Both the position numbers and the translations under genes were made by a program. Below are positions 41,208 through 44,401 of a stretch of 64,000 bases of DNA, one piece after another. The DNA is taken from NCBI GenBank assembly GCA_041916575.1, contig JAYRZI010000002.1, positions 149,117 to 213,116 on the forward strand, read 5' to 3'. Source of the stretch: Haliangiales bacterium. Lineage in GTDB: Bacteria; Myxococcota_A; Polyangia; Haliangiales; Haliangiaceae. A model generated the notes under the pieces. That model worked only from the letters and a program-made list of their open reading frames with translations. It searched no databases and was not told where the DNA came from. Position 1 is the stretch's first letter. Each line of letters opens with the position of its first letter.

Positions 41208-42416
41208 TCAGAACGCTGCGCCGAGCTGCAGGCTCACCGCGAGCTTGTCGTTCAGATCGGCGCCAAAGCCCAGGAGCCCCGCTGGGCGTCGCGACCAGGT
41301 GGCCACCCTGCTGCCCTGGAGCTGCACGCGCCAGCGTTGCCACAGGCCGCCGGTAAGGCCGACGCTGGTGTCGAGCACGTGGTCGAGGCGGTGCTCCACG
41401 TCGGGGTTGAGGTACGCGGCCAGCACGTACGGCTCGAGGTAGAAGGCGCCACGCGTCGCGCCGCCTAGCTTGTAGCCGGCGATCGCCTGACTGGCGAAGA
41501 AGGTGGTGGGGTCGTCGGCGCTGGCGGCGCCCAGGTGGCTCTGGCCTGCGAGCACGTCGATCCAGGCGCGTAGCCCCAGGCCTCGCTCGCCGAGGTCGAC
41601 CTCTGCGTCGAGGCCAGCGGCCCAGTACCGGCCGACGTCGCTGACGTAGTTGACCTCGCGGTTCGATACCACCGCGCCGATCCGAGCGACCCGGCCAAGC
41701 GAGACCTCGCCGCGTAGCGCCGCCGCGAGGCCGGCGCCTTCGGACAGCGGCCGCGCCGCGGCGTCGCCGGTGGTGGCAGCGGACTGGCTGACCGTGGCCA
41801 GCACGGCCGGTCCGCGCTTCTTGCGCTGCCAGCGCAGCTCGACGCCTTCTCGTCGGCCGGTGAGCGACAGGCCGTCATCGAGCACGTCGGCCACGGCGCC
41901 GCGGTCGATCGAGGGCAGGATCCAGGCCGAGGCGCGCTCGATGGCAGAGACCGGGCCCTTGAAGCGGCCGATCGACAGCTCGAGTCCGCGCGGGCCATCG
42001 AGCTCGATCAGCGCGTCGCGCAGGCTGACCTTGCCAGAGGCCTCGAGCACCACCTTGGCGCGGAGCTTCTTCTTCCATCGGTAGCGCGCGCCCAGTCGTA
42101 CGCTGGCGAGCTCGAGCTGACCGGTCCACGGAACCTCGTCCGTATCGAAGGCGGTGGCGCGCGCGAACACCCGTCCGCCGAACGTCAGCTCGCCGCTGCC
42201 GGCGCTCGCGGACCGGCCGGATCGCGGAGCGGACTCGCTCGCGTCGGGCCCGCTCGTAGTAGGCGCGAGCGCCGCCTCCGGCTCACTCGCCGCCTCACTC
42301 GGTGCCAGCACCGCGGGCTCCACGTCATCGAGGTCCTCGGCTTGCGCGCGAGCCTCGGCGCTGGCGGCGAGCGCACCCATGGCCGCGAAGAGCGACAGGT
42401 ACCTGTGCACCTTCAT
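41208..42416 (-). CDS. outer-membrane beta-barrel protein
   Basis: Signal peptide MKVHRYLSLFAAMGALAASAEA; alternating amphipathic strands; C-terminal ...LQLGAAF; ATGA overlap with the upstream gene. Confidence 0.6.
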   Translation of the reverse strand: MKVHRYLSLFAAMGALAASAEARAQAEDLDDVEPAVLAPSEAASEPEAALAPTTSGPDASESAPRSGRSASAGSGELTFGGRVFARATAFDTDEVPWTGQLELASVRLGARYRWKKKLRAKVVLEASGKVSLRDALIELDGPRGLELSIGRFKGPVSAIERASAWILPSIDRGAVADVLDDGLSLTGRREGVELRWQRKKRGPAVLATVSQSAATTGDAAARPLSEGAGLAAALRGEVSLGRVARIGAVVSNREVNYVSDVGRYWAAGLDAEVDLGERGLGLRAWIDVLAGQSHLGAASADDPTTFFASQAIAGYKLGGATRGAFYLEPYVLAAYLNPDVEHRLDHVLDTSVGLTGGLWQRWRVQLQGSRVATWSRRPAGLLGFGADLNDKLAVSLQLGAAF

Positions 42417-44401
42417 TGCTGGAACGGCCGCGCTTGCTTGATGTAGAGGCGCGGCGTCTCGCCGGGGAGTCCTTCGAGCTTCCATTCCACGTCCATCGCA
42501 TACCAAGGCTTGCCGGCGCCATAGGAAGCGCGGAACGCTTCGTGGATGCGCTCGAGCGCGGTCGCCAGCTCGAAGAGCTGGGTGCTGGTGAGCACCGAGG
42601 TTCCGGGTGCCACCAGGTTCGAGCGCTTGAGGTAGACCACGGGCTGGCCTTGCTGTTGCCAGAACAGCAAGATCTGATCGGTCGTCACCCCGGCCGGCGG
42701 CAGCACTACGGACTCTCCGCCGAGCTGCGCGTTGATGTAGAACGCGGGCGACAGGCCGGTGTCGTCGTAGGGGTTGTTGGTGAGCGCGACGCCGTTGGCC
42801 TCCTCATCTGGGAAGGCGCGGTGACAGAGCAGCGCCATGCCCACCGCCAGGTGCTCGATGCCGCGGTAGCTGCGCTCCTCGAAGGCCTTGTAGAACCAGA
42901 CGCTCGCCCACACCGCGCGGATCGCGTCTTCGATGGGGTCGGTCGGGTCGTTGGGATCTCCGCTCTTCGACGTGTAGAGCCCAGCGCCGGTGAAGCCATC
43001 GAGGTCTTCGGCGTTGGTGCTGGAGCGAAACCGCATCCGCACGCCGGGGTAGTCGGCGGCGAGCTTGTCCTTGACGAGCTGCACGAACGCGGGATCCAAC
43101 GGCGCGGCTTGCATCGCCGCGCGCAGCGTGGCGAGGCGCGCGTCGCGGGTAGCGGCGCTGTTTTGGAACTCCGGATCGGCGAGCATGGCGCGCACTTGAT
43201 CGTCGAAGCCGTGTTGCTCCATGAACTGCTGGTAGTAGTAAAGCGGGATCGCGAAGCCCTTGGGGATGAGCACGCCGCCGACGAAGGTGAGCGCGCCGAA
43301 ATGCGCTGCCTTGCCGCCGAAGGCCCGAGTGGCGGTCTTGACCCTGTCACGGAGGGGTAGCTGCGCGTCGCGGGACACCAGGTCGACGTCGTTGCGCAGG
43401 TCGGTGGCAGACAGATCCATCACCGGCACTGCGATGGCCTTGGGGCGGTGGGCTTCCCACCAGGCATCGGCCTCGGCCTTGGACACCTCGATCACCGAGT
43501 GCTCGAACAGCCCGACCGTGAGCTTGACCCACTTGCCCTCGAGGGCGCGCAGCTCTTCGTTCTCGAAAGCGCCGCGCAGCGCCATGTTGGGCGTGCCGCG
43601 GTTGGCCGACAGCACGTTGACGTGCGAGAGCGGGGTTTGGAACTCGGAGGTCACGATGCCCATGGCCACCGCGATGTCGTTGGGCACGTGATCGAGCACC
43701 ACGATGTCGCGGAACGAGAGGTAGCTGCCGCCGCCGCTGAGGCTCTCGGCGGTGTAGAAGCGGAGCTGGCCGTAGCTCTCGGCCACGTTCAGCGGCTGGT
43801 AGGTGATGCCCTGGTACAGCTCGTCCGTGGTGACGACCTTGACCGAGCTCGGCAGCGTGGCAGCGAGCTCTTCCACGGCCTCCGAGGTCGGGTGGAACGC
43901 CAGCTTGCCGCCGATGAACGAATGGCTGGCGATGGCGCGGTACGCGGTGGTGATCATCTGCGCGTCGGCGGTGTCATACGGGGAGATCTCATAGACCCAG
44001 CGATCGGGCTGCTCGTAATGGGTGAGCGCGCCCAGGATGAAGCGCCGGCTGGGCGAGAAGTACTCGCTGGTGTTGAACTCCGCGAGCATCGGCACCACCG
44101 GCAGGCCGTTGCCCGAGAGGTGCTTGGAGGCGAATTGGTAGTGGGTCTGGAAGGTGACGCTGTTCTGGAAGTGCAGCCGGTCGCCATCGAAGCGGTCGAC
44201 GATGGTCTTGACCGAGCGCGCGCCGGGGATGGTGGCGTCGAGGGGGCGAGAGGCCAGGGCGCGGAAATCCTCGGCGCAGCCCAGACTTGCCGTGGACACC
44301 GTGTCCTCGGTGAGGCCTGCGCAGGTAGGCTCGCTGTCGCCACAGGAAGCGACGGCGAGCCACAAGCACGCCACCGATGCGAGCTTGGCCACGCCGCTCA
44401 T
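42413..44401 (-). CDS. lipoprotein with PPDK_N (PEP/pyruvate-binding, ATP-grasp-like) domain
   Basis: Lipobox LAVASCGD; GGKAAHFGAL...IPKGFAIP and RFRSSTNAEDLDGFTGAGLYTS match the PEP-synthase/PPDK N-domain signature (VRSSAxxEDLxxxSFAGQ). Confidence 0.65.
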   Translation of the reverse strand: MSGVAKLASVACLWLAVASCGDSEPTCAGLTEDTVSTASLGCAEDFRALASRPLDATIPGARSVKTIVDRFDGDRLHFQNSVTFQTHYQFASKHLSGNGLPVVPMLAEFNTSEYFSPSRRFILGALTHYEQPDRWVYEISPYDTADAQMITTAYRAIASHSFIGGKLAFHPTSEAVEELAATLPSSVKVVTTDELYQGITYQPLNVAESYGQLRFYTAESLSGGGSYLSFRDIVVLDHVPNDIAVAMGIVTSEFQTPLSHVNVLSANRGTPNMALRGAFENEELRALEGKWVKLTVGLFEHSVIEVSKAEADAWWEAHRPKAIAVPVMDLSATDLRNDVDLVSRDAQLPLRDRVKTATRAFGGKAAHFGALTFVGGVLIPKGFAIPLYYYQQFMEQHGFDDQVRAMLADPEFQNSAATRDARLATLRAAMQAAPLDPAFVQLVKDKLAADYPGVRMRFRSSTNAEDLDGFTGAGLYTSKSGDPNDPTDPIEDAIRAVWASVWFYKAFEERSYRGIEHLAVGMALLCHRAFPDEEANGVALTNNPYDDTGLSPAFYINAQLGGESVVLPPAGVTTDQILLFWQQQGQPVVYLKRSNLVAPGTSVLTSTQLFELATALERIHEAFRASYGAGKPWYAMDVEWKLEGLPGETPRLYIKQARPFQQ

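Follow-up and report, generated by a model that had tools for sequence, protein, structure and literature searches.

Can a phosphotransferase of the dikinase type operate outside the cytoplasm? The periplasm and the outer membrane are generally regarded as lacking ATP-dependent chemistry, and the transport of lipoproteins, LPS and outer-membrane proteins is, for this reason, powered from the inner membrane. The question is raised by a reverse-strand gene in the stretch of 64,000 nucleotides from a Haliangiales bacterium that was analysed here (the window), the product of which (662 aa) carries a PPDK_N domain behind a lipoprotein signal peptide. The protein belongs to a large family without a characterised member; literature searches retrieved neither a paper on this family nor an experiment on any of its members. 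All features discussed are compiled in the table.

Features of the dikinase-type lipoprotein locus (positions refer to the window)
Feature	Position	Strand	Remarks
Whole dikinase-type lipoprotein gene	42413..44401	(-)	662 aa; signal peptide, N-domain, phosphohistidine carrier, ATP-grasp
Signal peptide and lipobox V-A-S-C	44342..44401	(-)	residues 1-20; Cys20 predicted from sequence as lipidated +1 residue
Conserved Cys27...Cys42 pair, putative disulfide	44276..44323	(-)	just after lipobox
Family-specific N-terminal alpha/beta domain, candidate acceptor-binding	43802..44275	(-)	residues ~43-200
Swivelling phosphohistidine carrier domain	43442..43801	(-)	residues ~201-320; motif FQTPLSHVNVLSANRGTPNM
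PPDK_N ATP-grasp nucleotide-binding domain	42419..43321	(-)	residues 361-661
Downstream translationally coupled secreted-protein gene	41208..42416	(-)	type I signal peptide, C-terminal Phe
Upstream translationally coupled lipoprotein, weak DUF3108-like similarity	44398..45102	(-)	PF21347 E 3.4e-5, below cut-off
DUF4956 membrane protein	45089..45763	(-)	PF16316 E 9.6e-46; start uncertain, ORF up to 45916
VTC-domain protein, polyphosphate-polymerase-type tunnel domain	45760..46542	(-)	PF09359 E 5.1e-24
DUF1554 / endostatin-like lipoprotein, frequent partner	46643..47437	(+)	PF07588 E 3.9e-6, 27.2 bits (cut-off 27.5)
Cys-rich lipoprotein, unannotated family, most constant partner	47447..48376	(+)	72/83 loci

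The gene has ATGA start/stop overlaps at both ends. Its ATG at 44401 shares ATGA with the TGA of the upstream gene, and the first in-frame Met after it is that at position 105. Since the latter already lies within conserved sequence that starts at Cys27, a downstream, cytoplasmic start is excluded and the lipobox-containing start proposed in the first-pass annotation stands. The N-terminus (MSGVAKLASVACLWLAVASC, followed by GDS) comprises a hydrophobic core and then the V-A-S-C lipobox (...LWLAVASC, followed by GDS), which agrees with the pattern [LVI][ASTVI][GAS]C at the end of a signal peptide. The lipobox Cys occupies the same column in 112 of 118 aligned full-length homologs; among these 112, Lys at position +2 is found in only one and Tat-like motifs in four. 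As judged from this sequence pattern and its conservation, the lipoprotein signal is genuine and family-wide, and the protein is probably Sec-exported and anchored in the outer membrane. Of 118 close homologs, 97 % retain Cys27 and 100 % retain Cys42; both residues are invariant in alignment A1 and may form a disulfide. A signal peptide was also recognized, by means of a simple hydrophobic-stretch pattern, in 126 of 150 distant cluster representatives. Distant family members are fused to LTD, CarboxypepD_reg, Ig-like and cadherin-like domains; such fusions are typical of extracellular proteins and therefore count toward export, as does the Cys27/Cys42 pair. The coupled and partner genes, encoding lipoproteins or a secreted protein, likewise favour an exported enzyme.

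The C-terminal part is a true PPDK_N domain, matching PF01326 with an E-value of 6.5e-26 (91.8 bits; cut-off, 27), a model that also matches 64 of 64 diverse family members. Both signature motifs reported from the first inspection, GGKAAHFGAL (residues 362-371) and RFRSSTNAEDLDGFTGAGLYTS (residues 457-478), are present. Profile matches of the domain in the PDB are to PEP synthase and RPH chains, and Foldseek matches comprise RPH (3.1e-16), HpeI, PEP synthase and PPDK; the AlphaFold2 model of the whole protein reaches a pLDDT of 92.2 and a pTM of 0.88. Conservation is 90 % or more at each of K364, R459, E639 and Q656 and complete at R658, which holds down to 31 % identity. An HMM alignment with Clostridium symbiosum PPDK pairs K364 with K22, E639 with E323, Q656 with Q335 and R658 with R337, while the pairing of R459 with R92 comes only from comparing the motif with that in the PEP synthase alignment. 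At the sequence level, all of these nucleotide and metal ligands of the dikinase superfamily (PPDK K22, R92, E323, Q335 and R337) have a counterpart. The NCBIfam models for PEP synthase and rifampin phosphotransferase matched only with their N-terminal ATP-grasp part and far under their cut-offs.

Describing the product as an ATP-grasp-like PPDK_N lipoprotein was correct for this domain, but overlooked a His carrier and an additional N-terminal domain. The former is a swivelling carrier domain with the catalytic His260, which is invariant and embedded in the motif QTPLSH (codon at 43622-43624). The GWD-type carrier model PF22973 reaches E 0.15 on the 662-aa protein (12.1 bits, below the cut-off of 27), and members checked individually scored 13-17 bits, most below threshold. 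H87 of the N-terminal domain does not vary, and K65, Y114 and R119 hardly do, again down to 31 % identity. The domain (~160 residues) had no Pfam match and no separate match among solved structures, and residues 28-345 gave no CBM match in Pfam even at E <= 10. In family member P0021 the unit of N-domain and His domain is duplicated in tandem and can thus be regarded as modular; this internal duplication accounts for the length of P0021, and no fusion to a partner gene was found in long family members. Along the chain, the order is N-terminal domain, His carrier and ATP-grasp, with which the protein ends.

The same order is found in plant GWD and PWD (EC 2.7.9.4 and 2.7.9.5, respectively), where a substrate-binding N-terminal part and a phosphohistidine domain precede the C-terminal PPDK_N domain. 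The GWD-specific carrier model PF22973 moreover fits the family more often (24 of 64 members at E <= 1; best, 6.7e-7) than does the general PEP-utilizers model PF00391 (3 of 64), and the LSHV motif around His260 presumably resembles that of GWD. For GWD, an essential role of the catalytic His is documented in PMC12892837 (citing Mikkelsen 2004). In contrast to the 662-aa exported lipoprotein, however, GWD and PWD are much larger plastid enzymes with CBM45 or CBM20 starch-binding modules, neither of which was detected here, their place being taken by the structurally unmatched domain of 160 residues. PEP synthase and PPDK share the PF01326 ATP-grasp domain, the catalytic residues and the swivelling His-carrier fold with the lipoprotein, but are cytoplasmic and arranged in reverse (ATP-grasp, His, TIM barrel); Pfam revealed no C-terminal PEP/pyruvate TIM barrel, and the respective NCBIfam equivalogs scored 73-79 bits versus cut-offs of 598-740. 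RPH, with which the small-molecule dikinases HpeI/HpeH and PigC/RedH were grouped for comparison, is also cytoplasmic and consists of ATP-grasp, rifampin-binding and His domains. The lipoprotein lacks the central rifampin-binding domain, and NF041857 matched its ATP-grasp part only (54.8 bits; cut-off, 999).

Gene neighbourhoods were counted at 83 loci, 52 of which are fully flanked. The Cys-rich lipoprotein accompanies the dikinase-like gene at 48 of the 52 (median gap, 244 bp) and received no annotation from Pfam (E <= 10), a PDB sequence search or a large homolog search, every named homolog being a 'hypothetical protein'. The DUF1554-like lipoprotein, present at 49 of 83 and 35 of 52 loci, matches the NCBIfam LenA/LenB family (E 3.7e-6) and nothing in the PDB. 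These two lipoproteins, rather than VTC/DUF4956, are the constant partners of the family. VTC and DUF4956 genes occur at 15 and 14 of the 83 loci, respectively, and one or both flank 9 of the 52 (about 17 %); their linkage recurs with other gene arrangements at L065 (labelled Polyangiaceae) and L070 (labelled Deltaproteobacteria), and is hence real but lineage-restricted. Inspection of the N-terminal sequence of the VTC-domain protein revealed no visible signal peptide. Relatives of the upstream lipoprotein (lipobox LSAC) were detected at 21 of 83 loci, and those of the downstream gene, which overlaps the dikinase-like gene's stop codon by ATGA, at 14, in 12 cases within 400 bp of the dikinase homolog. 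The downstream product has no Pfam match and may represent an outer-membrane beta-barrel. For two contigs with low-GC distant members the neighbourhood was uninformative. Cultured bacteria that carry the family include Archangium and Vitiosangium (loci L067, L073 and L079).

A resemblance to CotH systems had been suggested at the outset. Gram-positive pel loci are indeed accompanied by three accessory genes, for CotH, DUF4956 and a polyphosphate polymerase of the VTC type, and Pel-dependent aggregation is reduced in mutants of two of them (PMC7112168, PMC12345266; see also PMC2879425); the low frequency of VTC/DUF4956 in the present family, however, restricts the parallel. Both settings place beside VTC and DUF4956 genes a phosphotransfer-type enzyme that is exported and, if active, ATP-dependent, and the lamin-tail domains on some dikinase-like family members are a further likeness to secreted CotH kinases. 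CotH possesses an atypical protein-kinase fold without sequence or fold relationship to the ATP-grasp plus His-carrier architecture, and the Pfam scan did not detect PF08757 in the lipoprotein, the likeness being one of gene context only.

From its export signal, the folds of its domains, the retained catalytic residues and the partner genes, the exported lipoprotein is best explained, at a probability of about 0.6, as a complete enzyme of the PEP-utilising/dikinase superfamily, built from three domains, that would act as an extracytoplasmic His-mediated phosphotransferase. The conserved catalytic residues of the ATP-grasp domain make extracytoplasmic phosphotransfer chemistry the natural inference; the first-pass annotation had drawn it from the secreted PPDK_N domain, and phosphorylation itself is still only predicted. 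Accordingly conditional is the proposed course and direction of catalysis: a nucleotide triphosphate would be bound by the C-terminal domain, which would pass phosphoryl groups to His260 of the central carrier; the carrier would then swing to the N-terminal domain and deliver one phosphate to the acceptor, the terminal phosphate going to water by analogy with water dikinases. The acceptor would most likely be a polymer of the envelope or the extracellular space that the enzyme and the two partner lipoproteins handle jointly. The donor poses a problem: in such bacteria we know of no ATP pool in the periplasm or elsewhere beyond the cytoplasmic membrane, and as the signal peptides are of the Sec type, the enzyme cannot be charged before export.

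One way around this would retain the enzyme and exchange its donor, with cytoplasmic VTC polymerase and DUF4956 making and exporting polyphosphate (or nucleotide) for use by the dikinase-like lipoprotein. The position of both genes upstream on the same strand, next to lipoprotein, dikinase-like and downstream genes joined by ATGA overlaps, their recurrence at L065 and L070, and the secreted CotH kinase encoded with VTC and DUF4956 beside pel loci all fit this proposal, which is nevertheless unlikely given that most family members work without VTC or DUF4956 in cis. To our knowledge, moreover, no PPDK_N domain uses polyphosphate. Alternatively, the protein might be a non-catalytic envelope receptor or sensor for extracellular nucleotides or phosphorylated ligands. 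In favour of this, an ATP supply is not obvious, and an ECF sigma/anti-sigma pair is encoded divergently upstream at a few loci (L001, L002). This pair, however, was found at only about 6 of 83 loci and was rejected as a family feature, and the retention at only 31 % identity of every catalytic position tested, among them the carrier His as well as metal and phosphate ligands, renders a mere receptor quite unlikely.

Delivery into another cell, by outer-membrane exchange, vesicles or predation, where the protein would act as a modifying effector or toxin in the ATP-containing cytoplasm of the target, would solve the ATP problem, and the distribution of the family centres on predatory or social Myxococcota, with Bradymonadia in addition. 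Outer-membrane lipoproteins of myxobacteria are known to be exchanged between cells (PMC3325183). We consider delivery very unlikely in view of the high conservation (56-95 % identity) and uniform architecture of the 120 closest homologs, the constant partners being two conserved lipoproteins with no immunity-like gene evident, and the occurrence of the family also in genome bins labelled Fibrobacteria, Planctomycetales/Phycisphaerae and Thermoanaerobaculia. Polymorphic toxins are not known to be so conserved or so uniform. Hardly conceivable, finally, is a signal peptide that merely reflects misannotation of an ordinary cytoplasmic relative of PEP synthase or rifampin phosphotransferase, even though homologs go under the name 'pyruvate, water dikinase' in some database sources: the start fixed by the ATGA overlap, the conserved stretch ahead of the first internal Met and the retained lipobox contradict it, as do the reversed domain order and the missing TIM barrel and rifampin-binding domains.

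An exported His-mediated phosphotransferase would have consequences beyond this locus. A family that is exported and yet keeps every dikinase catalytic residue and the carrier His implies either an external nucleotide or phosphoanhydride donor or an unexpected use of the machinery, and provides a concrete, purifiable handle on the question of extracytoplasmic phosphoryl donors. It is likewise relevant to the puzzling role of the VTC/DUF4956 pairs that bacteria encode beside secreted kinases. Should a polysaccharide turn out to be the acceptor, in parallel with the phosphorylation of starch in plants, the family would represent a novel type of glycan modification outside the cell. Quite tentatively, and with some doubt, one may envisage that in many Gram-negatives a lipid-anchored GWD-like enzyme and two lipoproteins phosphorylate an envelope or extracellular polymer of their own or of their prey, fuelled in some lineages by a phosphoanhydride exported via VTC/DUF4956, as a non-homologous counterpart of CotH/VTC/DUF4956.

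Por_Secre_tail matches in three distant members were given no weight as signs of type IX secretion; in the two members that were checked, they lie near the N-terminus and below threshold. Overall, of 8000 candidates scored, 3299 pass the threshold of E <= 1e-5, and a relative is encoded on 404 stretches of the species-genome set; the family stems mostly from Myxococcota and almost always has a signal peptide.

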